DNA from: Candidatus Margulisiibacteriota bacterium
GTDB taxonomy: Bacteria > Margulisbacteria > WOR-1 > CAVSGV01 > JBHPDX01
DNA: 51,976 nucleotides
Direction of reading: 5' to 3'
Assembly: GCA_042577445.1 (NCBI GenBank)
Contig: JBHPDX010000002.1
Location: 1-51,976, forward strand
Shown: piece by piece, positions 109 through 46,281 of the stretch
Layout of the letters: each line of letters starts with the position of its first letter
Numbering within the stretch: position 1 is the stretch's first letter
The notes under the pieces: model-generated
Told to the model about the DNA's origin: nothing
The model's input: the letters and a program-made list of their open reading frames with translations, nothing else
Databases searched by the model: none
Translations under genes and position numbers: made by a program

Positions 109-110
109 TA

Positions 111-1052: not shown

Positions 1053-1061
1053 TCTCCATTT

Positions 1062-1817: not shown

Positions 1818-1819
1818 TG

Positions 1820-2308: not shown

Positions 2309-2312
2309 ATAT

Positions 2313-4136
2313 CTAGCTCACCTTTTCAATGGACACATTTATCGGTTCAAACAATATTCTCCCGGTTCCATCCGAGATGTTCCTGCCGAACAGGTTCCGC
2401 ACATCAAGGAAATGCGCCGGAACAAAAGCGAAACCATTGGGTATGGTATCGGTGATCCTTACATCGATCAAAAGCTCACCGCTCTTGGACTTTACCATCA
2501 CTTCGTCGCCTTCTTTAACGCCTATGTCTTCGGCAGCCGATCTGCTTATATCCAAGAGCGGGTCTCCGCATACCCTGTCAGGCCAATAAAATTTCTTGGT
2601 ATATGAGCCATCCGCAAAATGCGTTATATCCTCATCCGCTACCAGCATGTAAGACTTGTCTTTCCGCGCCTTCAGGGCGGATAAATTCTTTGCTATGCTT
2701 CTACCGAACTTCTCCATGCTTCCTGCCCTTGAAGTATTCTTCTTCGCAAGTTTTATGTCTTTATTGAACTTATCAGCGCCGATCTCTTTCTTTCCAATGA
2801 TCAAGATCAGCCTATGAATGATATCCATTTCGCTCTTTGAGCCACCAAGAGGAAGTATAGCTTCTTCCAGATTGACAACGCTGTCGTCCCCGAGAGCAAG
2901 GCTGCCTACTTTTTCAGAAACAGACGGCGCCGGCAGGATCACATCCGCAACTTCCGTGGTCCTCGACGGAAAAATATCAGATACAGCGAGCAGGTCAAGC
3001 TTTAACGGCTTATTATAGATATTTCCCCATTTAGCGCGGCTGACCACGTCAACCCCAAAAGAAATAATGGCTTTAATGCGGCCCGAGACCGCGTTCTCCA
3101 CCATCTCAGGCATTGTCATCGCCTTTTTACCGCCCATGACCACCCTGCGGATGTAATTGGCGCCGTTGGAGTTCATATATGTATAGAAAGGTAGTATCCC
3201 TTTTTTGCCTTTTGAAATAGAGGCGAGCAGTTTACATAATGTCCCCGTAAGCGGGTGGATCCTGTCAAATCCGCTGGAGATCACAATGGTTCCCTTCTTT
3301 GATGAAGCGAACTCTTTTGCCGAATTCAGGATAACGGCAGGAGGAACATTGGTAAGTTTTGATATCTCTTCGATGGTTATTTTATTTAAATATCTTTTCA
3401 ATGTCCGCTCTTTGCCGGAAATGGCCTTCTTAGTCTCCAGCGCGGCCTTTATCATCCCAAGCAGGACCACCCACTCCGTGCCGGGCTTCATCTGAATATG
3501 GGTCGTAGAGAACCATGCAGTATGGGATGCTTTAGGCTCGAGCACTATCACTTTTGTGCCTTTTTTTGTATATTTTGCGTTCATTATGTTCTTCGAAGAA
3601 CATGGGGCTTTAGAAAGTTGATCGCCGACAATAAGTATGCACTCCGAACTGTCGATATCGGTAACTGTGGAGGTCGGGACTTTCTGTATATAGTCTTCTT
3701 CCATTGCAGAGACCAGATTATCGTCATCAGAAGAGAATGCTACATCAAAATTGGATGTCTTTATGATATCTCTTGCCAGAACTCCCGCCAGATATATCTC
3801 CTCATTGGTCAAGGTGGGTGAAATGACCACGCCGATAGACTTCGCTCCGTGTTTTTTCTTTATATCCTGTATCTTCTGCGCCACATAACCCAAGGCCTCG
3901 TCCCAGCCGGCTTCCATTGTGGCCCCGTCCATCTTGATGCTTGGTTTTTCTATTCTATTCACGTTCTTAACGAGTTCTATTGAAGAGTTGCCTCTCGGGC
4001 AAAGAGAGCCTTTGTTTATAGGATTATCAAGATCATATTCAATGTGAGAAGGAACGCCGTTCTTGCTTGCAAGGACGAACCCGCAGCCCATAGAACAGAA
4101 CATACATATTGATCTTTTCTTTTCCATTCCCACCAT
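2313..4136 (-). CDS. Cytoplasmic molybdopterin (Mo/W-bisPGD) oxidoreductase catalytic subunit, FdhF-like fold but without a Sec/Cys active-site residue
   Basis: N-terminal C-x2-C-x3-C-x27-C (CMFCSMGC...SLCPRG) Fe4S4 motif, TNEE.Y motif, and a C-terminal molydopterin-binding barrel (GVKEGDEVMVKSKSGELLIDVRITDTIPNGFAFVPAHF). No twin-arginine signal. See the finding on residues 137-139. Confidence 0.85.
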   Translation of the reverse strand: MVGMEKKRSICMFCSMGCGFVLASKNGVPSHIEYDLDNPINKGSLCPRGNSSIELVKNVNRIEKPSIKMDGATMEAGWDEALGYVAQKIQDIKKKHGAKSIGVVISPTLTNEEIYLAGVLARDIIKTSNFDVAFSSDDDNLVSAMEEDYIQKVPTSTVTDIDSSECILIVGDQLSKAPCSSKNIMNAKYTKKGTKVIVLEPKASHTAWFSTTHIQMKPGTEWVVLLGMIKAALETKKAISGKERTLKRYLNKITIEEISKLTNVPPAVILNSAKEFASSKKGTIVISSGFDRIHPLTGTLCKLLASISKGKKGILPFYTYMNSNGANYIRRVVMGGKKAMTMPEMVENAVSGRIKAIISFGVDVVSRAKWGNIYNKPLKLDLLAVSDIFPSRTTEVADVILPAPSVSEKVGSLALGDDSVVNLEEAILPLGGSKSEMDIIHRLILIIGKKEIGADKFNKDIKLAKKNTSRAGSMEKFGRSIAKNLSALKARKDKSYMLVADEDITHFADGSYTKKFYWPDRVCGDPLLDISRSAAEDIGVKEGDEVMVKSKSGELLIDVRITDTIPNGFAFVPAHFLDVRNLFGRNISDGTGRILFEPINVSIEKVS

Positions 4137-7938: not shown

Positions 7939-7950
7939 TACTTCCTCCTC

Positions 7951-9057
7951 CTACTTTTTTATATATCCCTCGATCAAAATATCCTCGCCGATCTTTTTTA
8001 CATCATACCTGGAAAACTTAACGGCTCCCGCTACTCTTTTTACCCCTTTCCCCTCCACAATGGTCTTGGCTTTTTCTCCGCCAAATATCTTCGGGGAAAT
8101 AATCACATATATCTTATCAACTATCTTTGAGGAAAGCGCTGAGGCATTAACGCTGCCCCCGCCTTCGATCATGATGCTTGTGAAATCCCTTTTACCAAGC
8201 TCACTTATAAGATTCCTGAGGTCAACATAACCGCCCTTGGCCTTAACCTTCAGGATAGAGACATTTTTCTGTCTCAGAGCTTCAATTTTACGCTTTGGGG
8301 CTTTATTTGTCACGACGATAATAGTATTTTCTGGATCGGTTTTTATCACATTTGAATTAAGGGGTGTTCTTGCCAGGCTGTCCAATATGATCCGCTTTGG
8401 ATCTCTTTTTACTATTTTTCGGGTCCCCACATCTCTAACGGTCAATTTTGGGTCATCCTTTTTAACGGTGCCGAGCCCAACGATGACCGCATCAACATTA
8501 TTTCTCAAGTAGTGGGCAAGCTGTCTTGAAGGTTTACTGGAGATCCACTTGCTATCACCGATGGAGGTGGCTATTTTACCATCAAGGGTCATGGCGCTTT
8601 TTAAAATAACGAATGGAAGGCCGGTGGTAACATGTTTTGTAAAAGATTCGTTCAACTCTTTTGCTTCTTCTTTAAGGATGCCGATATCAACTTTAATATC
8701 AGCTTCGCGAAGTTCCTTGAACCCTTTTCCGGATACCAAAGGGTTAGGGTCCTGCATGGCGGCCACGATACGCTTTACACCCGCATTTATTATTTTCTGC
8801 GTGCAGGGAGGGTTATTGCCGAAATGGCAGCAGGGTTCCAGGTTAACATAAAGGGTGGAACCGTGAGCTTTTTTGCCTGCTTTTTTTATGGCGAAATCTT
8901 CAGCGTGTGGGGTTGAAAATTCAGCGTGGTATCCCTTGCTTATTATCTTCCCGTTTTTGACCAGTACTGCTCCAACTAATGGGTCCGGGCTTGTCACTCC
9001 TACCTGGCTCCTAGCAAGCTCGATCGCCAGTTTCATGAACTTAACATCTTCATTCAT
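7951..9057 (-). CDS. ribD: Bifunctional riboflavin biosynthesis deaminase/reductase
   Basis: 368 aa. CMP/dCMP deaminase zinc motifs HAE ... PCCHFGNNPPC, followed by a RibD C-terminal reductase domain. Confidence 0.9.
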   Translation of the reverse strand: MNEDVKFMKLAIELARSQVGVTSPDPLVGAVLVKNGKIISKGYHAEFSTPHAEDFAIKKAGKKAHGSTLYVNLEPCCHFGNNPPCTQKIINAGVKRIVAAMQDPNPLVSGKGFKELREADIKVDIGILKEEAKELNESFTKHVTTGLPFVILKSAMTLDGKIATSIGDSKWISSKPSRQLAHYLRNNVDAVIVGLGTVKKDDPKLTVRDVGTRKIVKRDPKRIILDSLARTPLNSNVIKTDPENTIIVVTNKAPKRKIEALRQKNVSILKVKAKGGYVDLRNLISELGKRDFTSIMIEGGGSVNASALSSKIVDKIYVIISPKIFGGEKAKTIVEGKGVKRVAGAVKFSRYDVKKIGEDILIEGYIKK

Positions 9058-9713
9058 TTTCTACCCAATTTTTTGAAACCTGATATTACATCTTTGTAGT
9101 TCTTCGATCCGAAGATGGCTGAAGCGGCGGCCAGGACATTCGCTCCAGCATCCACCACCTGCTTAGCATTGCCCGGATTGATCCCCCCATCCACTGCAAT
9201 ATCCAGCTTTAATTTTTTGCTGTCCACGATCCTGCGCAGCTCCGTTATCTTTGGAAGGACCTCCGGCATGAACTGCTGGCCTGCAAAACCGGGATTAACG
9301 GACATGATCAAGATCATATCAACCTTATCCAGTAATTTTTCGACGACTTTGATCGGCGTAGCAGGGTTAAGAGCGATCCCGGGTTTAACTGAATAGCTTC
9401 TTATCAGCTCAATATCCCTCTTTAAGTTCTTTGAGGCCTCTGCATGGATATTTATGATACCCGCCCCGGCTTTAGCAAAGTTCTCAATGTATCTATCGGG
9501 ATTCTCTATCATCAAGTGGGCCTCTATCGGGAGCTTGGTAATCTTGGAAATTGCACTTACAATAACAGGCCCCAAAGTGATATTCGGAACAAAATGCCCG
9601 TCCATAACATCAACGTGGATCATATCAGCCCCGCTATCCTCAATATTTATTATTTCTTCTCCTAATTTTGAAAAATCAGCAGAAAGAACAGATGGTGCAA
9701 CTTTTACTTCCAT
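9054..9713 (-). CDS. rpe: Ribulose-phosphate 3-epimerase
   Basis: 219 aa. PSVLSADF...HVDVMDGHFVPN...GVNPGFAGQ.F family pattern. Overlaps ribD by 4 nt. Confidence 0.9.
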   Translation of the reverse strand: MEVKVAPSVLSADFSKLGEEIINIEDSGADMIHVDVMDGHFVPNITLGPVIVSAISKITKLPIEAHLMIENPDRYIENFAKAGAGIINIHAEASKNLKRDIELIRSYSVKPGIALNPATPIKVVEKLLDKVDMILIMSVNPGFAGQQFMPEVLPKITELRRIVDSKKLKLDIAVDGGINPGNAKQVVDAGANVLAAASAIFGSKNYKDVISGFKKLGRK

Positions 9714-9724
9714 AACTGCCTCCT

Positions 9725-10522
9725 TTAAGGACTTTTAGAAACAGTAAGTACGACCGATGAGCCCACGCTTACTTCCTCATCCCACATCGGCTCCTGCCGC
9801 ATTACGATCCCTTCTTCTATAATATCCGTTTCCTGATAAGCGATCTTTGCAACATTGATCCTCATGTCATTTAAGATATCTTCCGCTTTCTCGAGCTTCT
9901 TGCCGATAAGATACGGCATCTTGATCAGGCCGAATTTTGGGTTTTTTGCAATGAACAGGTCAATATGAGATCCCGCTTCTACTTCCGTTTCCGCTGAAGG
10001 GAGCTGTCCCAGTATTATACCGGTTTGATATTTATCTGATGTCACTTCAACCGTAGCCCCCACTTTAAATCCCAACTCGGAAAGAAGCTGGCTTACCTGT
10101 GAATGCGGCCTTCCGATCATAGAAGGGACCGGCACCATTCTCTGCCCGGAAGATATCGTAAGATTGATTATTCTTCCCACTTTTACCCTTTTTTTAGGCC
10201 TGGGGTCCTGCAATATCACGCGGCCTTCAGGAATATACTTATCAAAATTTCTGCCGGCGATCCTTGGTTTCAGGCCGAATTCCTTGAGTACTGATATAGC
10301 CTCTGTAGAGCTCTGCCAGGTTATATCGGGGATGGTGACCTCCGGCACCGGTATAACATAAAAAACTAGGAGATACCCAACCACTATCGGCGATATGATG
10401 ACCATGAATATTGAGAGAATGACGAACTTGGGGGAAGGTATCTTCAATATATAGACCAGATACCCCGCCACTATCAATACCAGCATAACAAAGCTTAAAT
10501 ATAAAGTTAATATCTTGATCAT
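9725..10522 (-). CDS. Membrane-anchored protein with three PASTA repeats
   Basis: Two N-terminal TM helices, then three repeats of about 65 aa of the PASTA pattern (VP...G.....A...L...G......V.S......G.V..Q.P..G..V..GS.V.L..S). Own SD (AAGGTGA) 7 nt upstream. Confidence 0.75.
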   Translation of the reverse strand: MIKILTLYLSFVMLVLIVAGYLVYILKIPSPKFVILSIFMVIISPIVVGYLLVFYVIPVPEVTIPDITWQSSTEAISVLKEFGLKPRIAGRNFDKYIPEGRVILQDPRPKKRVKVGRIINLTISSGQRMVPVPSMIGRPHSQVSQLLSELGFKVGATVEVTSDKYQTGIILGQLPSAETEVEAGSHIDLFIAKNPKFGLIKMPYLIGKKLEKAEDILNDMRINVAKIAYQETDIIEEGIVMRQEPMWDEEVSVGSSVVLTVSKSP

Positions 10523-35230: not shown

Positions 35231-36484
35231 GTGGGAAAAACTATCGCCGAGAAGATCCTTTCAAACCACTCCAAAACAGACGCGCATGCGGGAGATATTG
35301 TTGTTGCCAATATTGATTTTTGCCTTGGCCAGGATGGCACCTCCGGTGTGGCTATTGATGTTTTTAACAAGATGGACGTCAAGAAAGTTTTCAACCCATC
35401 AAAGATCGCGATAATACTTGATCACAGTTCCCCCTCCCCCAACATCGGGGTATCAACTATCCATAAAAAGATAAGGGGATTTGCAGAAGCGCAAAAGATC
35501 AAATTATATGATATCGGCTGCGGCGTTTGCCACCAGCTGGTCCCTGAACAGGGGCATGTTGTTCCGGGAGACCTTGTTATCGGAGCGGATTCACACACCT
35601 GCACATACGGCGCGATCAATGCTTTTTCGACCGGGGTCGGATCGACAGATTTCGCGGCGGTAATGGCTTCAGGAAAATTATGGTTCAAAGTGCCTGAATC
35701 GATAAAGTTCATCATTAACGGGAAACTGCCAAAGGGTGTTTATTCAAAAGATCTTATACTATATATGATAAAACAACTTAGCGCCGGCGGAGCGACATAT
35801 CTTTCCACAGAATTCGAAGGAGAAGCGATAGACGCGCTTTCAGTCGATGCAAGGTTCACGATATCAAATATGGCTATCGAATTCGGCGCCAAAGCAGGGC
35901 TTATGAAGGCTGATAAAAAGGTAATAGAGTGGGTCAAGAAGCGTTCAAAGAGGATCCCGAAGCCGGTCAAGGCGGACGAGGATGCAAAATATTCTGACGT
36001 AAAAGTGTTCGATGCCGCAAAGATAGGTCCGCAGATAGCAAAACCTCACACTGTCGACAATGTTTCTCCGATCGAGGAAGTTGAGGGAACGCCGATACAG
36101 CAAGGATTTATCGGGACATGCACGAACGGAAGATTTGAGGACTTTAAGATAGCGGCAAAGATACTTAAAGGGAAGAAGATCCACAGGGATGCAAGGCTTA
36201 TACTTGCTCCTGCATCAAGGCAGATACTGAAAGAGCTTATCAGAACAGGCATTTATACGACATTATTGGATGCAAATGCGATCTTTGTAGTCCCCGGCTG
36301 CGGACCATGTGTCGGTACTCATAACGGCGTGCCGTCTGATGGAGAAAATGTGATATCAACAGCTAACAGGAACTTTAAGGGAAGAATGGGTAATCCTAAT
36401 GCGTTTATCTATTTAGGCTCTCCCGCTACAGTAGCCGCTTCGGTATTGAATGGGAAGATAACGGATCCAAGGAAATATCTGTAA
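35231..36484 (+). CDS. leuC: Aconitase-family dehydratase large subunit (3-isopropylmalate dehydratase / homoaconitase, archaeal type)
   Basis: 417 aa. Cluster ligand contexts DSHTCTYGA, GTCTNGRFEDF and PGCGPCVG. Confidence 0.9.
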   Translation: MGKTIAEKILSNHSKTDAHAGDIVVANIDFCLGQDGTSGVAIDVFNKMDVKKVFNPSKIAIILDHSSPSPNIGVSTIHKKIRGFAEAQKIKLYDIGCGVCHQLVPEQGHVVPGDLVIGADSHTCTYGAINAFSTGVGSTDFAAVMASGKLWFKVPESIKFIINGKLPKGVYSKDLILYMIKQLSAGGATYLSTEFEGEAIDALSVDARFTISNMAIEFGAKAGLMKADKKVIEWVKKRSKRIPKPVKADEDAKYSDVKVFDAAKIGPQIAKPHTVDNVSPIEEVEGTPIQQGFIGTCTNGRFEDFKIAAKILKGKKIHRDARLILAPASRQILKELIRTGIYTTLLDANAIFVVPGCGPCVGTHNGVPSDGENVISTANRNFKGRMGNPNAFIYLGSPATVAASVLNGKITDPRKYL

Positions 36485-37823
36485 TAGTTTTTATTTCCGC
36501 CGTTCCATAAGCTATCTTCCCATACGGTATTTCTAAAATAATTCTTCCTTTATTATCAGCCACCGTCGAAGGCCCACTGTTGCCGACATGAACAGCATAC
36601 CTGTTATTTTCTACCGCCCGCAGCGCTATAAGCTTGCTGTGTAAATACGGGATGCTTGAGTTGCCAAAAGATGTGTCTGACGAGATTAAACAGAGAATGT
36701 TCGCGCCTTCACTGACAAGCTTTCTTGCTACTTCCGGATAAAGCGATTCCAAACAGATCATCACCCCTACCCTGCCCAAACCGGACCTGCTGGAAAGAGT
36801 TAAAGTTTTTTTGCCGGATGAATAATCTTCCGTTTCAGAAAACGGGAATATTTTCTGCTTCCTGTATTTCTCCGTTGCATCGCCGTTCTCTTTAAGAATA
36901 AAGGCTATATTAAAAATGTTCCCGCCATGTGAATAATCAATATAAGAAGTCCCCAAAAGAAGCTCTGCTCCTTTCGAAGTTATTTTTCCATGTAAATATG
37001 ATAAGTAAGCATCGTCCTGTAGAATATAATTGCCTGATAATTCCGGCCAAATAACAAGTTTTACATTCTTTTTAAGGGCTTCTTTCGATTGATATATAAG
37101 CCTTTGATCGAAGTATTTCTTGAAAAATATCCCTCGTTCCATTAATAAGCGTTCTTTTGGGGATATATTCGGCTGAATAATAGCGATCTTGACTTTAGGG
37201 CCATGGTTTTCTTTCCTGTTGAGAGAAATATATCCATAACCAACATTTACTGCGTGAATAATGATCAATGGGATCAGTAAAAATAAGAGCCTATTTCTTC
37301 TTAGATAAATTTCAGCAAACACGGCGTTGGTATAGATGATCAGAAAGCCGAGGAAAAATGAACTTAAAATACCCGCGGATTGGATCATTATAGGAAAAGG
37401 GACAAGCGCGGTTTCAAGGGGGAACGGGAAGAGAAAAGGCAGCTTTGAAAGTAACTGCTGAGCTGCCACCCAACCTGCCCCGAATAAGAACGGCCTGAAC
37501 AGATAAGAACACTTTTTTGATAAGTACGCGGAGAACGTGAAGAATAATGCATAAATAATTGCGATCAACATAAACACCAGCACAAGAAAGAAAACCTGCC
37601 GGGCATCAAAAATCAATCTTTTAGCGTCTAAAGGTATTAATACGGCAAGTGCAACAGCTTCTGAAAACAGAAGATTCAATAAAAATATTTTTATTCTGGA
37701 GAACTTACTGTTAAAAATGAAAAGAGGAATAAAGGAAATGAATATTCCTATGGGAAAGAACACTAGAGGGTTCGGCAGGGAGATCACCGTGCCGATGATC
37801 CCCAGCAGAAATAAAAAAGACAT
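36426..37823 (-). CDS. lnt: Apolipoprotein N-acyltransferase
   Basis: 465 aa. N-terminal multi-TM region plus a C-terminal CN-hydrolase domain (VIWPEL ... KQKIFPF.E ... GVMICLES). The 3' end overlaps leuC by 59 nt (convergent). Confidence 0.8.
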   Translation of the reverse strand: MSFLFLLGIIGTVISLPNPLVFFPIGIFISFIPLFIFNSKFSRIKIFLLNLLFSEAVALAVLIPLDAKRLIFDARQVFFLVLVFMLIAIIYALFFTFSAYLSKKCSYLFRPFLFGAGWVAAQQLLSKLPFLFPFPLETALVPFPIMIQSAGILSSFFLGFLIIYTNAVFAEIYLRRNRLLFLLIPLIIIHAVNVGYGYISLNRKENHGPKVKIAIIQPNISPKERLLMERGIFFKKYFDQRLIYQSKEALKKNVKLVIWPELSGNYILQDDAYLSYLHGKITSKGAELLLGTSYIDYSHGGNIFNIAFILKENGDATEKYRKQKIFPFSETEDYSSGKKTLTLSSRSGLGRVGVMICLESLYPEVARKLVSEGANILCLISSDTSFGNSSIPYLHSKLIALRAVENNRYAVHVGNSGPSTVADNKGRIILEIPYGKIAYGTAEIKTITDISLDPLSSHSIPKRLL

Positions 37824-37825
37824 CT

Positions 37826-38959
37826 TTAGTATTTCGGATTTACCGAAATCCCCTGATAACCACCTTCGAACTGCTTTATGAACTTGTCTGTCTTTGTATC
37901 CAGTACCAGAAGCCTTGGTTTAGTTGTCGTCCTTCTTAAGAATGCCGGCCCGACTGTCATATACATCTTTCCCGGGCCAACGACAGAGAACATAAGCTGA
38001 GAGCGTAAATACAGTTTCCCAATTATCTTATCGGTCTTTACATCGATTATTTCAATAGTGTTCCGGTGTTCCTTGTCGTTCGTATGCAATACATAGATCT
38101 TGCCGACCGACTTATCATAGACCAGACTGCGGGCATGAGGAGTTATCTTGATCTTCTTGATAAGCTTGCCTGTAGAAAAAGAATAGACTAATAGTTCGTC
38201 ATTCGGCTGTAAAATCCCTGCTTTAGTTCGCTTACCCTTAGTAGCTGCAGCAATATATATTTTATCATCGACATTACAGATACCGTCCAGATCCTTATAT
38301 TTTTTATCCACATCAATGATCTTAACAAGCTTTTTCGTTTTTACATCTATCACATATATGTCGCCTGTATCGGATTTTTCATACAATTCTTCAATTGTAT
38401 TCACCTTAAATTGATAAAAAGATGCCAGAAAAAGGTACTTTTCCCCGTCGAAGAACATGTTGTTGATATTTGCCTGGATAAGTTCTGGATTATCTTCCTG
38501 AAGGAAAATCTTGCCTGTTTTTCTCCCGGTTTCCCGGTCAATAAAAACAACACCGCTTTTCGACCTTGTTCGGTCATTGCCTTTCACCTGCACGATCAGT
38601 TCTTTATCCGTCAAGACCATCCGGCTTGGGCCAAATATTTTACCGAGGCGGGCAAAACGTTTTATTTTATCTTTGACCGGATCATAATAATAGATGCCGC
38701 GGCCGTACATTTTACCCGAGCGGAGATCCGCAATATAGCATCCGCCTTTTTCATCAACAATGAAGTTATTGAATCCTTTACCCCGCGGCTTGGGGATCTC
38801 TCTTACTATCTCATCTTTATTAACGTCGAACTGCACAAAACACGCGGGCTCTCCGGGATTGTACCTCAACACATAAGCATGGTTTACTGTTAAAGCAAGA
38901 GAGCCCATATCAAATATAAAAATCAGTTCAATTAATAATATAATTATCTTTCTTATCAT
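37826..38959 (-). CDS. Secreted or anchored beta-propeller repeat protein (YVTN/YncE-like)
   Basis: 377 aa. N-terminal hydrophobic anchor, then repeated segments of about 45 aa of the type G.IYV.D......I..ID..T.K.I..I. Confidence 0.5.
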   Translation of the reverse strand: MIRKIIILLIELIFIFDMGSLALTVNHAYVLRYNPGEPACFVQFDVNKDEIVREIPKPRGKGFNNFIVDEKGGCYIADLRSGKMYGRGIYYYDPVKDKIKRFARLGKIFGPSRMVLTDKELIVQVKGNDRTRSKSGVVFIDRETGRKTGKIFLQEDNPELIQANINNMFFDGEKYLFLASFYQFKVNTIEELYEKSDTGDIYVIDVKTKKLVKIIDVDKKYKDLDGICNVDDKIYIAAATKGKRTKAGILQPNDELLVYSFSTGKLIKKIKITPHARSLVYDKSVGKIYVLHTNDKEHRNTIEIIDVKTDKIIGKLYLRSQLMFSVVGPGKMYMTVGPAFLRRTTTKPRLLVLDTKTDKFIKQFEGGYQGISVNPKY

Positions 38960-39900
38960 TATAGCGTGCTCACATTTGGAGAATAGCAGAAATCTGGCCC
39001 CAGAGCGTCCGAATAATATATATCGTCGGGAGAAACACCTATCCAGGCGAACATCGGCGCTCCAAGCGCTTTCTCCTGCAGGTTACTATTAAACGTGCTT
39101 GTATTATTAGAATCAAGGGAAATATACGGCTTAAAAGCATGATAAACCAGCTTGGAACAATACATGGAACTCATATCATCCTTATCGCACCACCGGTATA
39201 AAAAGTAGGCGCGCTCAAGCATTGTTGAAACAGTAGGGAAATATGGTTTGCCTTTATATACCATTTCTGCGGAATCAAGGGCGTTCATAACTTGGCTATA
39301 TGTAAGGGTAACAATCTTTTTACATGTATAATAAGTAACATCGCCCCATGTTTCATTTGTTTTGTTCACATCAACTCCGCCAGATGGCGTCGACTCGAAC
39401 ACCTTTTGCTCCGATATACTATCAACTATCGCAACATGATTCCAATTGGAGAACATTTTCACCAGATTATTTGCCGTGCTGTTGCCTCGCGTGAAAATAA
39501 GATCGCCCCTGTTCCCGCTTTCTGTCTGAAACCTCTGCCAAGCTGCAACATCGAAGGGGATCTCTACGCTATCATCCCATCCGCCCATAATATAAGCGGT
39601 GTCAACTCTATATTTGGATGGATCCAACAAAATAGTAGATGAAACAACCGTGAAATCCGATCCGCATGCTGTAAAAGGAGGGAAGAATCCCAGATTTACC
39701 AATGCGTTCAGTGGTTTATTGATATTCGCAAAATAAAAATATTCTACTCGCAAAGCTTCCCTCAGATCCTCAAAAGAATAATACAGCGGCCTTGAATCCA
39801 GGCTCCCACCCTTGCCCCCGCCCCCTCCTGCAAATGACGCACATGAGAAAAGCATTAGTAGCATAACAACAATAAAAGTAACATTGAGCCTTTTAAACAT
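38959..39900 (-). CDS. Lipoprotein with a permuted-papain (YaeF/YiiX, C92-like) amidase-like core
   Basis: Lipobox LFSC followed by a Gly-rich linker. GDLIFTRG......SNWNHVAIV and ...MYCSKLVYHAF resemble the YiiX-type Gly-Asp ... His ... Cys arrangement. Confidence 0.45.
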   Translation of the reverse strand: MFKRLNVTFIVVMLLMLFSCASFAGGGGGKGGSLDSRPLYYSFEDLREALRVEYFYFANINKPLNALVNLGFFPPFTACGSDFTVVSSTILLDPSKYRVDTAYIMGGWDDSVEIPFDVAAWQRFQTESGNRGDLIFTRGNSTANNLVKMFSNWNHVAIVDSISEQKVFESTPSGGVDVNKTNETWGDVTYYTCKKIVTLTYSQVMNALDSAEMVYKGKPYFPTVSTMLERAYFLYRWCDKDDMSSMYCSKLVYHAFKPYISLDSNNTSTFNSNLQEKALGAPMFAWIGVSPDDIYYSDALGPDFCYSPNVSTL

Positions 39901-39912
39901 CTTTCTCCCCTC

Positions 39913-40566
39913 CTAGTTTGAAATTGTTTCAGCAAAAACATTCATTTTATCAACCGGTATCTCTATTGAACCTTCCGCGGCAGTGCCGTCGTCGCCAGAA
40001 ACCACTGTATAAGCAAGTACCAGCGCCTCCAGCGGCGTCATCCCGTCATTACCATCCGAATTCATATTTGGCATCGATTCTTCGATCACGTTCTTCACGA
40101 TCATCACGATCTCATCGTCTACCCACACACCTTCAGTGCTTCCCAATATATTTATATTGTCCGTAACAGCTCCTATATCAATTGGAATATTCGGTGCACT
40201 GATATCTGATAGCACTGACATTCCACCGCTTGTTCTCGCAGCCAATTCCTTATCCGCTATCGTTTTGACGGTATCAGGACTCACAATGGAAACTAAAGAT
40301 TGTATCGATGCTATAGAGGAGGATTGGTCGACCCTTGAATCAACATAATCAACAAAAGTATTGACCGCTCTTTCCGCGCTCGCCTCGTCGCTTATCTCTC
40401 CAAGCTGGCCGTCAAATTCATTGATCATAGGATTATCCGCTATTGACGGGATCGTCTTGGAAGTAGCGACATCTCCCTTTGTGCCGACCCATTCACCGCA
40501 GCCGCAAAGAGAAACCATGAACATTAGAATACAAAATAACACTAAAAACTTTCTCATATATTTCAC
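39913..40566 (-). CDS. Hypothetical lipoprotein
   Basis: Signal peptide with lipobox (SLCGC). Acidic, Ser/Asp-rich mature part. Strong SD AAGGAGGTGA. Confidence 0.5.
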   Translation of the reverse strand: MKYMRKFLVLFCILMFMVSLCGCGEWVGTKGDVATSKTIPSIADNPMINEFDGQLGEISDEASAERAVNTFVDYVDSRVDQSSSIASIQSLVSIVSPDTVKTIADKELAARTSGGMSVLSDISAPNIPIDIGAVTDNINILGSTEGVWVDDEIVMIVKNVIEESMPNMNSDGNDGMTPLEALVLAYTVVSGDDGTAAEGSIEIPVDKMNVFAETISN

Positions 40567-40735
40567 CTCCTTTACCCTTTACTTAGCAATTTCAATGCCA
40601 GTCAAATTTATACATAAAAAAGACAAGGGAAGGTCGATCTAAGCTACGATCGCAGGAATATCCGACTTCTATGGGGATTTACATACAAAATATTTCGTGT
40701 TAGCATTAAAGCTCCGTGAAAGGGGTAAAAATAGA

Positions 40736-41425
40736 GTGAAGAAAAGCTTAGTATTGATCGTTCTTATAGTCCTTGCACTATCAATTCCGGCATATTCCTA
40801 TAGGCCTTTAACTACTGATGATACCGCTACGGTAAGTAAGGATAAATGGAGCCTGGAAACTGGCCTTGAATCCGATACGGACAGGGCATCCAACACAACG
40901 AACTCCCTGAATATCGATCTAACATACGGTTATAGTGAGAACATGGACTTAAAGGTTTCTTCATCAATTCAATCCGCAGCCGGATCAAGCGGCGTAGGGT
41001 CAACAGCTTTTCAGGCAAAATACAGGTTCACTGAAGAAGATGGGAACATGCCAAGCTTGGGGCTCGAAGGATCCATTGCATTCCCGGCATATACCGGGGG
41101 TAATTCCACGATATCCACAACAGGATTGTATACAAAAACACTGGATACGTATGTTTATCACCTGAACTTAGGTTTAAGCGGCAACGGAGACTATACTTCC
41201 GTAAATTACGGCGGCGCTTTTGATGTTGTTTTCCATCCGGAAGCAGGCATCAATATCACGATGGAACTTGTAGGCGGAAGCACTAATTCAGGGGCAACAC
41301 TGGCGGGACATTTGGGCACAAAATGGACGGTAAATGAAGATCTTACGGTCGATGGCGGTATGTCGGTAGGGCTTAACGACAACACATCGAGTGATATAAA
41401 GGCCGGATTAACGACTACATTCTAA
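40736..41425 (+). CDS. Small outer-membrane beta-barrel, paralogue 1 (MetA-pathway/transporter-type OMP family, by recollection)
   Basis: The GTG at 40736 (AAAGGGG SD) gives MKKSLVLIVLIVLALSIPAYS|YRPLTTDDTATV. Contains the KYRFTEEDGNMPSLG motif, alternating-hydrophobic strands and a terminal Phe. Confidence 0.65.
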   Translation: MKKSLVLIVLIVLALSIPAYSYRPLTTDDTATVSKDKWSLETGLESDTDRASNTTNSLNIDLTYGYSENMDLKVSSSIQSAAGSSGVGSTAFQAKYRFTEEDGNMPSLGLEGSIAFPAYTGGNSTISTTGLYTKTLDTYVYHLNLGLSGNGDYTSVNYGGAFDVVFHPEAGINITMELVGGSTNSGATLAGHLGTKWTVNEDLTVDGGMSVGLNDNTSSDIKAGLTTTF

Positions 41426-41437
41426 AAGGAGGGTAAA

Positions 41438-42106
41438 ATGAGAAAGAGTTTGATATTGACCATACTGTTCCTCTTCGCGCTCTCGACAGCTTCGTACGCG
41501 CTTCGTCCCCTATCCACAGATAACACAGGAACGACTTACCAGGGGGGATGGAAAGTAGAGACTTGGCTGGATTCTGAAACGCTCAATTCCACCAGCACAA
41601 GCAGATTGGGTGTGAAAGGAAAATATGGTCTTACCACGAATTTTGAATTTCAGGGAGCTGTTTCCTATCAGTCTGTAGGTGGTACAAGCGGAAGAGGCCC
41701 GATCGATCTGCTCTTAAAATACAGGTTCAATGAAGAATCGGGAACAACTCCGAGTTTCGGTGTCAGGGGCGGCATATCACTTCCTGAAACAGGAGATTCA
41801 ACTATCACTGTAAGAGCGCTTTTGACCGATACTAAAAAGGACTTTACTTATCATACTAATTTGGGTCTTGCTACCAGCGGCAGCAGGAATGGAATATTCT
41901 ACGGCGGCGCCCTGGTTTTTCAGCTGAATAATGACCTGAAGGCTATGGGAGAATTATTCGGAAGCGGGTTAACCGAACAGCTGTTCACAAGGATCGGCGG
42001 AACATTGAGGATAAAAAGGAATATACATCTTGACGGCGCGATCAAATTGGGGTTAAGTACGAATACGCCAAGCGGTTTCACTATCGGAGTATCTGTTCTA
42101 ATATAA
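41438..42106 (+). CDS. Small outer-membrane beta-barrel, paralogue 2
   Basis: Signal peptide ...ASYA|LRPLSTDNTGTT and the KYRFNEESGTTPSFG motif. AGGAGGG SD. Confidence 0.65.
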   Translation: MRKSLILTILFLFALSTASYALRPLSTDNTGTTYQGGWKVETWLDSETLNSTSTSRLGVKGKYGLTTNFEFQGAVSYQSVGGTSGRGPIDLLLKYRFNEESGTTPSFGVRGGISLPETGDSTITVRALLTDTKKDFTYHTNLGLATSGSRNGIFYGGALVFQLNNDLKAMGELFGSGLTEQLFTRIGGTLRIKRNIHLDGAIKLGLSTNTPSGFTIGVSVLI

Positions 42107-42129
42107 TAACCATCCTATTCAGAAATACA

Positions 42130-42167
42130 AAGGCCGTATAGTATAAGAATTATACGGCCTTATTTTT
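42130..42167 (+). terminator. Rho-independent terminator after paralogue 2
   Basis: Perfect 11-bp stem AAGGCCGTATA / TATACGGCCTT, a 10-nt loop, then ATTTTT. Confidence 0.75.
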
Positions 42168-42217
42168 GACCGGATATCCGTAATTTCCTGTATGACAAAT
42201 TTCACTCTAACAAATGC

Positions 42218-42255
42218 TTGACTCCTCGTGTTACTTATTATAATATTCGTGCTAC
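42218..42255 (+). promoter_or_regulatory. nikR operon promoter with GTGYTAC repeats bracketing the -10 box
   Basis: TTGACT at 42218-42223 and TATAAT at 42239-42244 (15-nt spacer; the alternative TAATAT gives 17 nt). GTGTTAC at 42228-42234 and GTGCTAC at 42249-42255. Confidence 0.5.
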
Positions 42256-42256
42256 C

Positions 42257-42682
42257 GTGAATACATCACAACTTGAAAGGTTCGGCGTATCGATGGAATC
42301 GGAGCTCATTGAAAGCTTCGATAAGCTCATAAGTAAAAAAGGATATCCAAACAGGTCCGAAGCGATAAGGGATCTTGTCAGGAACCTGATGGTAGAAGAA
42401 GAGACAAAGCTTGGGACAAAAGAGGTGATCGGCACGATCACGATCGTATACAGCCATCATATCCATGACCTGACCGACACACTGAACCATATTCAACATG
42501 ACTTCCATGACCAGGTGATCTCAACCGTTCACGTACATTTGGATGAACACAATTGCCTGGAAGTTTTAATAGTCAAAGGGAAAGGTAAGGAAATAAAAAA
42601 GATCGCCGATAAACTGATCAGCACAAAAGGAGTGAAGCACGGTAAATTAACGATCACAACAACAGGAAAGGATTTAAGATAA
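42257..42682 (+). CDS. nikR: Nickel-responsive transcriptional regulator NikR
   Basis: RHH N-terminus [32 protein letters not shown] and a C-terminal metal site HVHLDEHNC (H-x-H-x5-C). The start is moved to the GTG at 42257, because the ORF-track TTG at 42218 is the -35 box. The start remains uncertain. Confidence 0.85.
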
Positions 42683-42683
42683 A

Positions 42684-43367
42684 ATGAGAAATAATTTAAT
42701 TCTGGGCCTCTTATTTGTTTTCATATTGTCAACGGTCTCATACGCGGCAAGGCCGCTTGCTACCGAAGATTCAGGAACTGTAAGTGTCGGGGAATGGGAA
42801 GTTGAGACAGGTCTTGAATCAGAAATAGACAACACTTCAAGTGTAACAAATACGCTGGGCATTGCATTTAAAACCGGTATTAACGACTCTCTTGATCTTG
42901 GGGCCGAGATATCTTCTCCATCCGTTGACGGTGAAGGCGGGCCCGGCACTACAGCGCTAAAAATAAAATACAGGTTTAACGACGAAACTGATACATTGCC
43001 AAGTTTCGCCGTCGGAGCAACAGTTGCCGGTCAACCTAATAACCAAGACAGCGTAACAACTATAACGGCTATCGCAACGAAGAATTTAAATGATTTGGCC
43101 CTGCATATTAATCTTGGCTCAACTTCCACAGGTAATACAAGTGAAACAGGTTATAGTGGCGCGATAGAATACCCCGTAAACGATATAATAACAGTGGTCG
43201 GGGAAATAGTGGGCGCGTCTGCTTCAGGAACATCCCAACTTGATGCCCTTATCGGAGGCAGAATAAGTATTACTGAGAACATGACCATTGATGGCGGATT
43301 TAATATTAATATGAGCGACAACAGCCCGGCAAGCAAATATACGATCGGGCTAACAACAATATTATAA
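42684..43367 (+). CDS. Small outer-membrane beta-barrel, paralogue 3, inside the nikR-nikMN operon
   Basis: Signal peptide ...VSYA|ARPLATEDSGTV and the KYRFNDETDTLPSFA motif. Starts 1 nt after the nikR stop. Confidence 0.65.
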   Translation: MRNNLILGLLFVFILSTVSYAARPLATEDSGTVSVGEWEVETGLESEIDNTSSVTNTLGIAFKTGINDSLDLGAEISSPSVDGEGGPGTTALKIKYRFNDETDTLPSFAVGATVAGQPNNQDSVTTITAIATKNLNDLALHINLGSTSTGNTSETGYSGAIEYPVNDIITVVGEIVGASASGTSQLDALIGGRISITENMTIDGGFNINMSDNSPASKYTIGLTTIL

Positions 43368-43382
43368 GAAGGAGATAAATAA

Positions 43383-44093
43383 ATGCACATACCGAACGGA
43401 TTATTGGATCCTAAAATTGCAACAGGAAGCGCATTCGCGGCTGCCGCAGTACTTGGTTACTGCATAGCAAAGGTTAAGCAGGCGCTGGTGGCAGCTGTTC
43501 CCGAAGCTGTCCTTGCCGGGATCGGGAATGTTACCGCGACCGTAAAAGGCGGGATCGGAAAGGCTGCTGAAAATCATTTTGTAAAGATGGGAGCTATAGG
43601 CGCTCTAATATTTGCCGGACAAATGTTCAACTTTCCTGTTGCTGAAGGAACTTCAGGACATTTACTCGGAGGCATAATTGCCGCAGTAGCGCTGGGACCG
43701 TTTTCCGGAGCAATAGTGATAGCCGCCGTCCTTTTCGTCCAGTCCATATTCTTTGCCGACGGCGGAATAATGGTCCTTGGCGCGAACATTTTGAACATGG
43801 CAATTATCGGTTCTTTTGCATGTTATTACATATATTATAATATCTACAATGCGATGAAGAATAAATATGGGTTTTATTTAAGCGTTGGATTGGCCGCATT
43901 CTCATCAGTGCTTATCGCCTCAATAGCCTGCTCGCTTGAGATCGCATGGTCTGGGACTGTCAACCTTGGCATTGTCCTTCCTGCCATGGCTTCTGTTCAT
44001 GCTGTTATCGGCATATCGGAAGCTTTGATAACCATAATGGCTCTGGAGATATTAAGGTCTTTGAAGTTCGATCTTGAAGGTGAAATAAAGTGA
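43383..44093 (+). CDS. nikM: ECF-type nickel/cobalt transporter substrate-capture subunit NikM/CbiM
   Basis: 236 aa, multi-TM, with the N-terminus MHIPNG (cf. MHIPEG / MHIMEG metal-binding N-terminus). AAGGAG SD. Confidence 0.85.
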   Translation: MHIPNGLLDPKIATGSAFAAAAVLGYCIAKVKQALVAAVPEAVLAGIGNVTATVKGGIGKAAENHFVKMGAIGALIFAGQMFNFPVAEGTSGHLLGGIIAAVALGPFSGAIVIAAVLFVQSIFFADGGIMVLGANILNMAIIGSFACYYIYYNIYNAMKNKYGFYLSVGLAAFSSVLIASIACSLEIAWSGTVNLGIVLPAMASVHAVIGISEALITIMALEILRSLKFDLEGEIK

Positions 44094-44341
44094 ATAAAAA
44101 GACGGTCTGGTACGTGATCTTGATCTCAATAATTGTGGCAATCCTAGCATCATATTTTGCTTCTGCATCGCCTGACGGACTTGAAAAAGTAGCTGAAACA
44201 TTTGGCTTTATTGAAGATGCAAACGGTACTTTTGGATTTTTTAGTGACTATACCCTGTTCACAGGGATAATCGGGCTTTTAATAATATTCGCTACATTCA
44301 AAGGAATAGGTCTTTTAATAACCAAAGCATCGCAAAAATAA
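44090..44341 (+). CDS. PDGLE-domain small membrane protein (NikN/NikL-like accessory subunit)
   Basis: 83 aa, two TM helices, and the literal SPDGLEKV motif. Overlaps nikM by 4 nt. Confidence 0.7.
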   Translation: MNKKTVWYVILISIIVAILASYFASASPDGLEKVAETFGFIEDANGTFGFFSDYTLFTGIIGLLIIFATFKGIGLLITKASQK

Positions 44342-44378
44342 TCCGGCACACAAACCAAATAGAAATTCCCGACCAAAA

Positions 44379-44387
44379 TGTTATAAT
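44379..44387 (+). promoter_or_regulatory. Extended -10 promoter giving a leaderless transcript
   Basis: TGtTATAAT at 44379-44387. The ATG at 44394 is 6 nt downstream, with no SD. Confidence 0.45.
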
Positions 44388-44393
44388 ACTCAC

Positions 44394-44666
44394 ATGTACC
44401 GCAATAAAAAAGGTTATATCTTTGTTTATCTTGCCATCATTTCATCATTTTTAGCGACAATGATAACTTACAGCCCTTCCAACAGCATCAACAACTTTGC
44501 CAGGAATCTTCTGCCGGCAAGGGTCGCCAAACGGTTGAGTTTTATCTTAAGCGAAAATCCAATAGATTTTTCAAGTGTGACGATCGGTCTTATGGGAGTC
44601 CTGATAACCTTCGGCCTTTTCGCCGGGATCAGCCTTATATTCATCAGGAGGAATGATGATACTTAA
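44394..44666 (+). CDS. Hypothetical two-TM small membrane protein
   Basis: 90 aa with N- and C-terminal TM helices. Overlaps the leuD start by 14 nt. No family recognised. Confidence 0.45.
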   Translation: MYRNKKGYIFVYLAIISSFLATMITYSPSNSINNFARNLLPARVAKRLSFILSENPIDFSSVTIGLMGVLITFGLFAGISLIFIRRNDDT

Positions 44667-45162
44667 GGGTAAGTCAAGAAAGCTTCCCCAGAACGACGAC
44701 ATAAACACCGATTACATTATATCAGGGCGGTATAAGTTCAAGATACAAGACCCAAATGAACTCGCCAAGCATGTAATGGAAGATCTTGACCCGAATTTCT
44801 ACTCAAAAGTATCAAAAGGCGACTTTATCGTCGTTGGGAATAACTTCGGATGCGGCTCATCAAGGGAACAGGCCCCGATGGCTATCAAATATGCAGGAAT
44901 ATCCGCGGTACTGGCTAAATCATTCGCCAGGATATTCTACCGCAACTGCTTTAACCTCGGCCTTCCGGCAATCGAATGCGATACAGACGATATATCTGAA
45001 AATGACGAGCTGGAAGTTGATCTGGACAAGGGAGAGGTAAGAAATAAGACCAAGAATAAGACCATAAAGATAAAACCGCTTCCAAAAGTAATGCAGACCC
45101 TCCTTTCCGACGGCGGCCTCGTGGAGCACTTCAAAAAACACGGCGGGTTCAAGCTGTCCTGA
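44653..45162 (+). CDS. leuD: Aconitase-family dehydratase small subunit (3-isopropylmalate dehydratase / homoaconitase, archaeal type)
   Basis: 169 aa. NFGCGSSREQAP and the swivel-domain pattern. Confidence 0.9.
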   Translation: MMILKGKSRKLPQNDDINTDYIISGRYKFKIQDPNELAKHVMEDLDPNFYSKVSKGDFIVVGNNFGCGSSREQAPMAIKYAGISAVLAKSFARIFYRNCFNLGLPAIECDTDDISENDELEVDLDKGEVRNKTKNKTIKIKPLPKVMQTLLSDGGLVEHFKKHGGFKLS

Positions 45163-45222: not shown

Positions 45223-46281
45223 ATGACGATATATATAGTAGAGGGGAATCCTGCGGCATTTTGGCCTGCAGATAAACTTATTATGGCAAACATCAATACA
45301 GATACGCCCGTCAAGCAGCGCTATGCTTATGAAAGCATGGATGCGAATTATGAGCGGCTCATACTTACCCGTGCAAAGAGAGATCTTGCAAAAGTCGGCT
45401 ATCACGGAAGAGATAAATTAATAGAAATGGACGAAAACGGCCGGATATCGGACAAGGAAAGGATATTAAACTACATAGATAAAATACCTAAAGATAGATT
45501 GACCAGATCGATCATGGAGTTCAGAAAATATCTGCTGCCAACCCCGCCAATGCCAAAGCCTGATAAGACAATGTCTGTGGATGACCCAAAGAACTCGCAT
45601 AAATATATAAAACAGATACATCAGGAAGAATACGTAGCGACAATAAAGATAGTATTTCCTGACGGCAATTATTATATGGTCACTCCTTTAGATTCTGATA
45701 CTGTTGATTACCCGTTGCAGATGCTTGAAAGCTCCGTCTGTCCGCAAATTCCTGAGAAATTCTGCTGCATGGACGCTGATAAGTTCTTAAGTATGCACCA
45801 AGAATTGAAAAAGACCGGTGAATTTTCTATGCTCCATCGAAAGAAATATGGAAAGCCAAAAAAAGTGTCAGCTGAGAAATTCACGGCATTTTTAAAGGCT
45901 TATTCGGCAAAGATACTTCAATACCACCGCGATCAGTACAATGAAATAGGCGCCTGCGTAGCAATATCGTATGGCGTTAAAAAGTTAATGAAGAAAGAGG
46001 GTATCAGCTGCGGCATATATCAAGATGTGGTCAGCCCCGCCGGATTCGTGCATTTATATAATATAGTCAACGTTGACGGGATATATTACCGCATGGATTT
46101 TACGACAGGGCAGTTCGAAAAAAAGTTCCAGTGGGGAACACAACTTGACCTCGTGATCATGCCGGTCCAGGTAAAGGGTTTTTATGAACAGGAAGCAGCC
46201 GTATTTGGATTAACTCATTACACGCCGCTGGAAGCCGGTATAAAATCAGAGGCAAGATTCATGCATGCCATGGAACAATAA
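45223..46281 (+). CDS. Hypothetical protein with a C-terminal transglutaminase-like Cys-His-Asp core
   Basis: 352 aa. GACVAISYGVKKLMKKEGISCGIY ... GFVHLYNIV..DGIYYRMDFT resembles G.C..FA.....LR..GIP.R ... HAW.EV...G.W...D. The start is uncertain. Confidence 0.45.
   Translation: MTIYIVEGNPAAFWPADKLIMANINTDTPVKQRYAYESMDANYERLILTRAKRDLAKVGYHGRDKLIEMDENGRISDKERILNYIDKIPKDRLTRSIMEFRKYLLPTPPMPKPDKTMSVDDPKNSHKYIKQIHQEEYVATIKIVFPDGNYYMVTPLDSDTVDYPLQMLESSVCPQIPEKFCCMDADKFLSMHQELKKTGEFSMLHRKKYGKPKKVSAEKFTAFLKAYSAKILQYHRDQYNEIGACVAISYGVKKLMKKEGISCGIYQDVVSPAGFVHLYNIVNVDGIYYRMDFTTGQFEKKFQWGTQLDLVIMPVQVKGFYEQEAAVFGLTHYTPLEAGIKSEARFMHAMEQ

Follow-up and report, generated by a model that had tools for sequence, protein, structure and literature searches.

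How do nickel and cobalt ions cross the outer membrane before an importer of the inner membrane takes them up? The outer-membrane routes known for nickel are TonB-dependent receptors in a few proteobacteria, and elsewhere unspecified porins are assumed (PMC11247825). The question is raised by a stretch of 51,976 nucleotides from a Candidatus Margulisiibacteriota bacterium (contig JBHPDX010000002.1, positions 1 to 51,976; the whole stretch is called the window below), in which the gene for a small secreted protein is wedged between nikR and nikM, and the genes for two related proteins lie immediately upstream. Our analysis suggests that the three proteins are beta-barrels, and that the clade to which they belong probably serves nickel/cobalt uptake as an outer-membrane component that has not been described before.

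The nickel genes are tightly packed (all features described here between positions 40678 and 44666 are on the plus strand). The most likely start of nikR (42257-42682, 141 residues) is the GTG at 42257, the codon opposite which the nikR ATG of the closest relative (metagenome locus L057) falls in an alignment. The product has a ribbon-helix-helix domain and a nickel-binding C-domain, keeps the H-x-H-x5-C motif, and matches PF08753 (NikR_C, 3e-32), PF01402 and NF003381 (3e-64) in Pfam and NCBIfam. After a spacer of 1 nt from the nikR stop, the gene of barrel paralogue 3 (42684-43367, 227 residues) begins, and a further 15 nt separate its end from nikM/cbiM (43383-44093), which encodes the S component of an energy-coupling factor (ECF) transporter (PF01891, 1.7e-45; N-terminus MHIPNG). 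The start of the following nikN-type gene (44090-44341), encoding an 83-residue PDGLE protein with two transmembrane helices (PF13190, 7.3e-10; weak CbiN matches in NCBIfam), overlaps the nikM stop. NikM keeps Met1-His2 and, by alignment (MHIPNG, GTSGH and then single Q, N, H and E residues), those corresponding to His67, Gln94, Asn109, His190 and Glu198 of TtNikM2 (4m58; PMC3945884); the Met1-His2/His67-equivalent ligands of the S component and the adjacent two-helix N subunit of an ECF Ni/Co transporter are thus both in place. A previous, sequence-only reading of the window had given the coordinates of the barrel genes, the nikR stop, the nikM start, the spacers and the NikR and NikM motifs, and all of these proved correct; the start of nikR at 42257 is a correction.

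The same reading had remarked that no T or ATPase component follows nikMN. Indeed, hidden Markov models (HMMs) built here from the CbiQ and CbiO proteins of related loci found no CbiQ- or CbiO-like open reading frame (ORF) across the 52-kb window. This is unusual, not unprecedented, because basal activity has already been described for M plus N without Q and O, as a minimal unit (PMC3945884); the T/A genes could also be located elsewhere in the genome. The window also encodes a secretin, in keeping with a diderm envelope.

The genes of barrel paralogues 1 (40736-41425, 229 residues, mature N-terminus YRPLTTDD, 303 bits with the barrel HMM) and 2 (41438-42106, 222 residues) precede nikR. The three proteins are true paralogues, as had been proposed (34-39% identity, E 1e-42 to 1e-51 in BLASTP), and all carry signal peptides whose removal at an AxA-like site would leave mature proteins of 201-208 residues. 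The common motifs quoted earlier, a mature N-terminus (Y/L/A)RPL(T/S/A)T(D/E)(D/N) and a central KYRF..E...PS(L/F)(G/A), are present in all of them. An AlphaFold2 model of barrel 3, computed from a 10-sequence alignment, shows 12 beta-strands (mean predicted local distance difference test score, pLDDT, 84.6; predicted template modelling score 0.76), so that the check for a predicted barrel had a positive outcome. Ahead of strand 1, the model has a conserved 15-residue coil (A22-G36), in which ARPLxT[DE]D is invariant.

The sequence-only reading had named the MetA-pathway family for these proteins, to which their direct match is marginal. Against PF13557 (Phenol_MetA_deg), copy 1 reaches 21.6 bits, compared with a gathering threshold of 22; a Pfam search gave no PF13557 match for copies 2 and 3, copy 2 matching only the generic OMP_b-brl family, below threshold (24.5 vs 28.7), and copy 3 no family at all. 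No NCBIfam model was found that matches the window barrels. The window copies are thus at or below the cutoff of the family, whereas homologues that align over their full length and are closer to typical members pass it (P0007 with 68 bits, P0008 with 60, P0005 with 22.7). A Foldseek search of the PDB with the barrel 3 model returned FapF first (E 1.7e-10, TM-score 0.73-0.77), with 0.61 for the 12-stranded NanC and 0.62 for the COG4313 protein Pput2725 (4RL8), and FapF was also the sole match (7e-7) in a profile search of PDB sequences. An exhaustive profile search retrieved 6,874 cluster representatives at E<=1e-3, and just 107 at E<=1e-30. From the marginal Pfam scores, the fold matches, the passing homologues and the contrast between these two numbers, it follows that the window barrels are, as far as sequence and model comparisons can tell, a small divergent clade, as yet unnamed, inside the large PF13557/COG4313/FapF-like superfamily. 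For the protein cluster of barrel 2, one copy at NCBI bears the name 'hypothetical protein [Candidatus Margulisiibacteriota bacterium]'. A side result of the Pfam searches was a weak match of homologue P0004 to PF27733 (UCP029691), an uncharacterised family that gives no functional clue.

Many relatives of these barrels are found next to nickel genes. An initial homologue search gave 18 clusters, several of them with PDGLE+PF13557 or CbiM+PF13557 domain pairs. We then scored the six-frame ORFs of 46 loci, taken from one genome per species, with self-built HMMs, and called a barrel nickel-linked when NikR and/or CbiM was encoded on the same strand within 2.5 kb. In this motif-seeded sample, 28 of the 34 good barrels (at least 90 bits) were linked, with NikR in 15 cases and CbiM in 23. 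Among the weaker hits, mostly from Rubrivivax/Burkholderiales, such a neighbour was present in 2 of 11, both incomplete (one at a contig end, L053; the other a fragment of the frameshifted barrel of L040). The carriers are labelled Omnitrophota, Planctomycetales, Thermodesulfobacteriota/Syntrophaceae/'Deltaproteobacteria', Edwardsbacteria, Stahlbacteria or unclassified metagenome-assembled genomes (MAGs), nearly all the records being MAGs or single-cell genomes. The comparative scan near nikR, nikM or cbiM that had been suggested as a check thus showed strong enrichment, and some of the homologues are even fused to PDGLE/NikN.

Three arrangements recur. In the first, type A, the order is (nikR)-barrel-M-N-Q-O, with Q/O in 17 of 18 evaluable genome loci; Q/O are missing nearby in L013, in L001 and in the window itself, and T/A genes are likewise lacking near the genes of L061 and L063, while most other loci have them. 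The gene orders seen in metagenome loci are barrel-CbiM-PDGLE-CbiQ-CbiO in L003 and, with CooT upstream, in L004; nikR-barrel-CbiM-PDGLE in L058; nikR-barrel-nikM in L057, which carries the closest relative of copy 3; and barrel-CbiM-PDGLE in L001, which belongs to a sister genome that is syntenic with the window and encodes a NikM 71% identical to the window's. The only barrel of L001, whose gene ends 13 nt ahead of nikM (12 bases in between), is orthologous to barrel 2 (48% identity); therefore, more than one type of window paralogue is linked to nik genes somewhere. In type B, the order is (nikR)-M-N-barrel, and Q/O genes were nearby in none of the loci (L005, L007, L010, L016, L029, L040); in L029 the barrel gene is 44 nt downstream of a fused Nik(MN). 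Type C, nikR-barrel-95-aa three-transmembrane protein, is found in L017 and L019 (labelled Omnitrophota) and in the unclassified L028.

Two observations on these loci are worth recording in their own right. The type C protein of about 95 residues (MCYxAP...IDHLWNGELFLISEN; L017 6760-7047, L019 6740-7036, L028 6713-7000) takes the place of nikM after nikR-barrel, has no match in Pfam or NCBIfam, and is a candidate for a new small nickel permease or accessory protein. In L013, a TonB-dependent receptor gene (7947-10016) directly follows barrel-nikM-nikN, which gives this one locus both types of outer-membrane route, and a NikR box with 1 mismatch precedes the barrel gene.

Regulatory sites point in the same direction. 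When upstream regions were scanned with the consensus published for deltaproteobacterial NikR, GTGTTAC-N13/14-GTAACAC (PMC545781), about 18 loci showed boxes (GTGYTAY-N13-GTARCAC, <=3 mismatches) ahead of either nikR or the barrel gene; in L035, L036 and L039, a perfect GTGCTAC-N13-GTAGCAC palindrome is the element right before the barrel gene. The search for NikR boxes in other genomes, also proposed earlier, has thus turned up palindromes in front of orthologous operons and, in some cases, of the barrel gene. Overall, we consider it very likely that the barrel clade is functionally tied to metal uptake.

In the window, the nikR-barrel3-nikM-nikN unit has a promoter-like site at 42218-42246 (TTGACT-17-TAATAT, from a consensus scan). 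It is overlapped by a candidate NikR operator at 42228-42255 (GTGTTAC-N14-GTGCTAC), which consists of two GTGYTAC half-sites in direct orientation and ends 1 nt before the nikR start codon. With weights derived from orthologous loci, the half-site at 42228 is the top-scoring one in the whole window, and the tandem pattern, which was picked post hoc, occurs just once in the window and in none of 100 shuffles. The element is conserved as GTGCTAC-N14-GTGCTAC directly before the nikR ATG of L057. Read as an inverted repeat, however, the element has 3 mismatches; a search of the window for a canonical inverted box gave a single hit, with 3 mismatches, which is not significant by itself. Barrels 1 and 2 form a separate unit, with a promoter-like site at 40678-40706 (TTTACA-17-TAGCAT with TG, by consensus scan alone) and, at 42130-42167, the intrinsic-terminator-like element that had been reported after copy 2 and was found again: a hairpin (42130-42161) with a 13-bp stem including 5 G-C pairs, followed by a T-run, ATTTTTGACC. 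Nothing convincing in the way of a strong palindrome precedes copies 1 and 2. NikR control, which the earlier reading had suggested for the barrels, is plausible for the nikR-barrel3-nikMN unit only, where the half-sites are tandem and conserved.

The composition of the barrels bears on what they might conduct. The net charge of the mature protein is -14 for copy 1, +3 for copy 2 and -18 for copy 3, the last having 26 acidic and 8 basic residues, and in the strands of barrel 3 hydrophobic and polar residues alternate cleanly, the polar set that presumably faces the lumen having 11 acidic and 6 basic residues as well as His141. Among the sampled barrels, the median net charge is -11.5 for nickel-linked members (minimum -34) and -5 for unlinked homologues. 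The contrast between barrel 2 and barrels 1 and 3 is also a hint that the paralogues may differ in selectivity. Residues R23, D28, D29, E41, K95, H141, N143, E174 and D203 are invariant, and they are present in unlinked distant homologues as well; because of this sharing, they are probably fold or plug determinants, not nickel ligands. A metal site formed by the conserved charged residues and His141 was considered and dropped, since unlinked betaproteobacterial homologues have these residues too. Specific to the clade are D71, D/E45, G86 and E101.

The explanation that we favour, and consider moderately probable on the basis of the sequences and the model, is that the barrels belong to the NikR regulon and act in the outer membrane as passive, acidic channels for cations, feeding nickel or cobalt to NikMN. 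A passive cation-selective channel is preferred to a binding receptor because the polar face is acidic and the invariant residues do not look nickel-specific. When nickel is scarce, NikR would leave its operator and nikR-barrel3-nikM-nikN would be transcribed as one unit. The barrel would be exported by the Sec pathway, cleaved after the AxA-like site and inserted into the outer membrane, where it may offer hydrated Ni2+ or Co2+ a cation-selective passive route to the periplasm. There, the high-affinity Met1-His2 site of NikM, together with NikN, would capture the ion and move it across the inner membrane, either at the basal rate of M+N or with the help of an ECF T/A module encoded elsewhere. 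Copies 1 and 2 would be extra paralogues in a transcription unit of their own, whose regulation and selectivity may differ. For the window organism, then, we infer the outer-membrane location, the channel activity, the selectivity for cations or nickel, and the repression by NikR. The proposal made by the sequence-only reading, i.e. dedicated, nickel-regulated channels feeding NikMN, is partly supported, by the predicted barrel fold, the nik linkage, the fusions and the NikR boxes of orthologous loci; NikR control of copies 1 and 2 found no support.

Several points weigh against this explanation. As for the window itself, pattern and position-weight-matrix scans of 40560-40735 found no recognisable NikR box ahead of copies 1 and 2, the element before nikR is direct, not inverted, and barrel 2 is slightly basic. 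A nickel-specific ligand cluster was looked for in the barrels by comparing residue conservation with unlinked homologues, and none was found. The barrel-nikMN unit of L001 has neither nikR nor a NikR box. Sampling in the genome scan favoured the clade, as the N-terminal motif A[AY]RPL[TSA]T[DE]D served as the seed, and the neighbour calls depend on HMMs built from few sequences; a metagenome scan with NikM as the query found a barrel in 0 of 5 loci, too few for a frequency. Finally, hydrophobic substrates are what the characterised COG4313 members are associated with, and Pput2725 is a poor conductor of hydrophilic solutes (PMC4493636).

Some of these points are also what would be expected if the barrels were a broad divalent-metal starvation porin for nickel, ferrous iron and zinc, with no selectivity for nickel, the window copies being small general porins of which one happens to be co-transcribed with nikMN. 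Members of the clade are indeed found in other metal contexts, namely nikR-x-barrel-ZnuA-DsbD_2 (L035, 5034-8362), FeoB-barrel-Fur (L025, 3959-7624) and Fur-DUF2325-barrel (L046, 5025-6693), which suggests that the clade has been recruited to iron and zinc regulons as well. The lack of a nickel-specific residue signature and of a NikR box at copies 1 and 2 would fit, and porins with Fur boxes near feoAB have already been proposed for other porin families (PMC545781). However, such a porin would not be expected to be linked to a nickel module in 28 of 34 sampled members, to have NikR boxes directly before its genes, or to be fused specifically to the NikN/PDGLE subunit, and we regard this alternative as unlikely.

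The fusions deserve closer description. Single PDGLE::barrel ORFs are present in two lineages (P0008/P0009/P0016, with L016; and P0018), whose barrels are about 27% identical. Among the type B loci, the barrel is fused in frame to the PDGLE gene in L005, L007, L010 and L016, and in a frameshifted form in L040. The order of elements is a first transmembrane helix, the PDGLE loop, a second transmembrane helix, a short basic loop, a signal-peptide-like helix ending in VFA|ARPL or AHA|ARPL, and the barrel, with no stop codon at the junction. The AlphaFold2 model of P0008 has helices at 2-29, 33-40, 74-97 and 103-112 followed by 12 strands, in agreement with this reading; the model (mean pLDDT 64, helical part of low confidence) was used for the order of elements alone. 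With such a topology, the barrel could be exported in a Sec-type manner and released by signal peptidase. In L005, an in-frame TTG has an AGGA 9 nt upstream, and a separate start of the barrel could be located there. Some odd ORFs (P0012, P0013, P0014 and L040 5906-6291) combine a NikM fragment or a non-homologous N-terminal stretch with the C-terminal helix of PDGLE and a full barrel; P0014 begins with MHIPDGFL, and the L040 barrel has a frameshift. Such ORFs have the appearance of deletion derivatives, of loci in decay or of chimeras from assembly.

From the fusions, two bolder readings could be drawn. The first would be an ECF-type uptake system spanning two membranes, in which the barrel, made in some lineages as part of a NikN-barrel polyprotein and sent to the outer membrane by an internal signal peptide, docks on the PDGLE loop and passes Ni2+/Co2+ directly to NikM; M, N and the barrel could then work with no ATPase/T module, which is missing from all M-N-barrel operons that were examined. 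This we judge rather improbable. According to the second, which appears distinctly improbable, the barrel would be a trans-envelope partner of NikN, docking on the periplasmic PDGLE loop and handing the ion to NikM, and, in operons that lack Q/O and have the barrel behind NikN or fused to it, an obligatory structural subunit as opposed to a free channel. The occurrence of single ORFs in two divergent lineages would be accounted for in this way, as would the distribution of Q/O, which follows M-N-barrel in none of L005, L007, L016, L029 and L040, against 17 of 18 evaluable barrel-M-N loci. On the other hand, the junction looks like a cleavable signal peptide that would separate the two parts, the TTG with its AGGA could allow independent translation of the barrel, and the PDGLE loop is short.

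It might also be supposed that the barrels conduct a nickel chelate or another organic ligand, such as Ni-histidine or a metallophore, along a partly hydrophobic path or through a lateral opening such as has been proposed for COG4313 proteins. The superfamily offers precedents for hydrophobic or amphipathic substrates and for an N-terminal plug of the lumen (PMC4493636), and the 14-15 conserved N-terminal residues are retained here. However, it is the bare ion that the N-terminus of NikM binds (PMC3945884), the examined loci showed no genes for metallophore synthesis, and the barrels are strongly acidic and 60-100 residues shorter than COG4313 proteins, so that we find this reading very unlikely. 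That the barrels have no direct role in transport, being structural or protective outer-membrane proteins or an exit for excess metal co-inherited with the nik genes, is scarcely credible: FapF, the closest solved fold, is admittedly a secretion pore, but hitch-hiking poorly explains co-occurrence across phylum-level groups, in several gene orders and with a fusion, and NikR boxes shared with uptake genes fit import better than export.

Returning to the favoured passive channel, we may ask how far the nickel module extends and what it might serve. Downstream of nikN, an ORF of 90 residues with two transmembrane helices (44394-44666) shares the start region of the gene for a LeuD-type small subunit (44653-45162 in the ORF listing). 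This ORF was considered as a third partner of the S unit and rejected, and its earlier inclusion in the nickel module is not borne out: in L001 its homologue (49% identical) again overlaps the leuD start and is separated from nikN by four genes on the opposite strand, so that it stays with leuD and probably falls outside the nickel operon. It is possibly a degenerate NikN/PDGLE-like paralogue, to judge from its alignment with PDGLE (hhalign probability 86%, E 4.6e-6) and from an SPxx[IL]xx[FV]A stretch resembling the PDGLE motif.

Some 8 kb separate leuC (aconitase large subunit) from leuD both in the window (35231-45162) and in L001 (2282-12610), and the variable insert between these two genes holds the nik module and several genes for secreted or lipoprotein-like products. 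Between leuD and leuB, the window has a 352-residue ORF (45223-46281) with a weak match to a transglutaminase-related lipoprotein and no match in Pfam.

As a possible user of the nickel, a [NiFe] hydrogenase at the start of the window had been put forward. Positions 1-4136 (minus strand) carry a formate-hydrogenlyase-like string of genes (an FdhH-like molybdenum oxidoreductase, a HycB-like 4Fe-4S protein, a tetratricopeptide-repeat protein and a NuoH/HycD-like membrane subunit), which ends in the first 36 codons of a CxxCDIE (CNNCDIEILD) protein, presumably similar to the small subunit of group-4 [NiFe] hydrogenases. The window thus holds only the edge of a hydrogenase-like cluster; of the hydrogenase proper, the window includes only these 36 codons of a small-subunit-like gene, and no [NiFe] large subunit was found inside the 52 kb. 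The link between the nickel module and a hydrogenase is thus circumstantial.

If the favoured explanation is true, nickel/cobalt uptake would for the first time have an outer-membrane component independent of TonB, and an ECF transporter its first partner in the outer membrane. The barrel is beside or fused to NikMN(QO) under at least six phylum-level labels, mostly in metagenome-assembled or single-cell genomes. Part of the family would have to be re-labelled, the Pfam name 'MetA-pathway of phenol degradation' being misleading for this clade, whose members NCBI annotates as hypothetical. The barrel is short and easily expressed, which allows a direct test of the passage of nickel and cobalt through the outer membrane. 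In addition, the NikN::barrel polyprotein poses a question of biogenesis, namely how an inner-membrane protein and an outer-membrane barrel are made from one ORF.

Comparison with known systems helps to place the proposed channel. The COG4313/PF13557 channels (Pput2725, 4RL8; TcpY; SphA) are, like the window barrels as predicted, 12-stranded monomeric barrels in which a conserved N-terminal segment leads up to strand 1, and in that family the N-terminal residues, about 14 of them, are folded into the barrel lumen (PMC4493636). They measure 270-320 residues in mature form, compared with 201-208 in the window, where the Pfam score is at or below the cutoff, and their context is the catabolism of aromatic compounds or lipids, whereas the window barrels, two of them acidic (copies 1 and 3), occur with NikR and NikMN, and their relatives also with Fur and FeoB. 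FapF (5O65/5O67/5O68) is the best structural match, but its chains have 334 residues against 222-229 in the window, and it exports a polypeptide, whereas the role suggested here is the import of an ion. Moreover, the NCBIfam model of FapF (NF058560) gives 17-18 bits on the homologues, compared with a cutoff of 700, and does not match the window proteins, and the loci that were inspected showed no fap genes. A search of the accessible literature found no publication linking PF13557/COG4313/FapF-like barrels to nickel or cobalt, NikR or ECF transporters, in agreement with the earlier remark that no role in metal uptake has been characterised for the family and with the absence of an NCBIfam model.

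With the NikMNQO/CbiMNQO importers (TtNikM2, 4M58; Nik(MN)QO of Rhodobacter), the window shares a Met1-His2 NikM, a PDGLE partner and an adjacent NikR; it is unlike them in that a barrel gene is embedded among the S-unit genes, or fused to them in relatives, and that Q/O are missing from the window. The descriptions of those importers that were consulted mention no outer-membrane component (PMC545781, PMC11247825, PMC3945884). TonB-dependent nickel receptors such as FrpB4, FecA3 and NikH likewise provide a NikR-regulated outer-membrane route for nickel (PMC11247825), but they have 22 strands and a plug and are energised by TonB, whereas the window barrels have about 205 residues, 12 predicted strands, no TonB box or plug domain, and no match to PF07715 or PF00593 in Pfam. 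The nearest parallel in reasoning is offered by the 'hypothetical porins' with Fur boxes near feoAB in Geobacter and Desulfuromonas, which were likewise deduced from a regulator site and an adjacent inner-membrane metal importer; they belong to the OprB and phosphate-selective families, were proposed for iron, and none is fused to a transporter subunit (Rodionov et al. 2004, PMC545781). Both the fold family and the importer were thus already known, and what is new is their combination, that is, the embedding of the barrel in the operon, the NikR boxes and the fusion to NikN.

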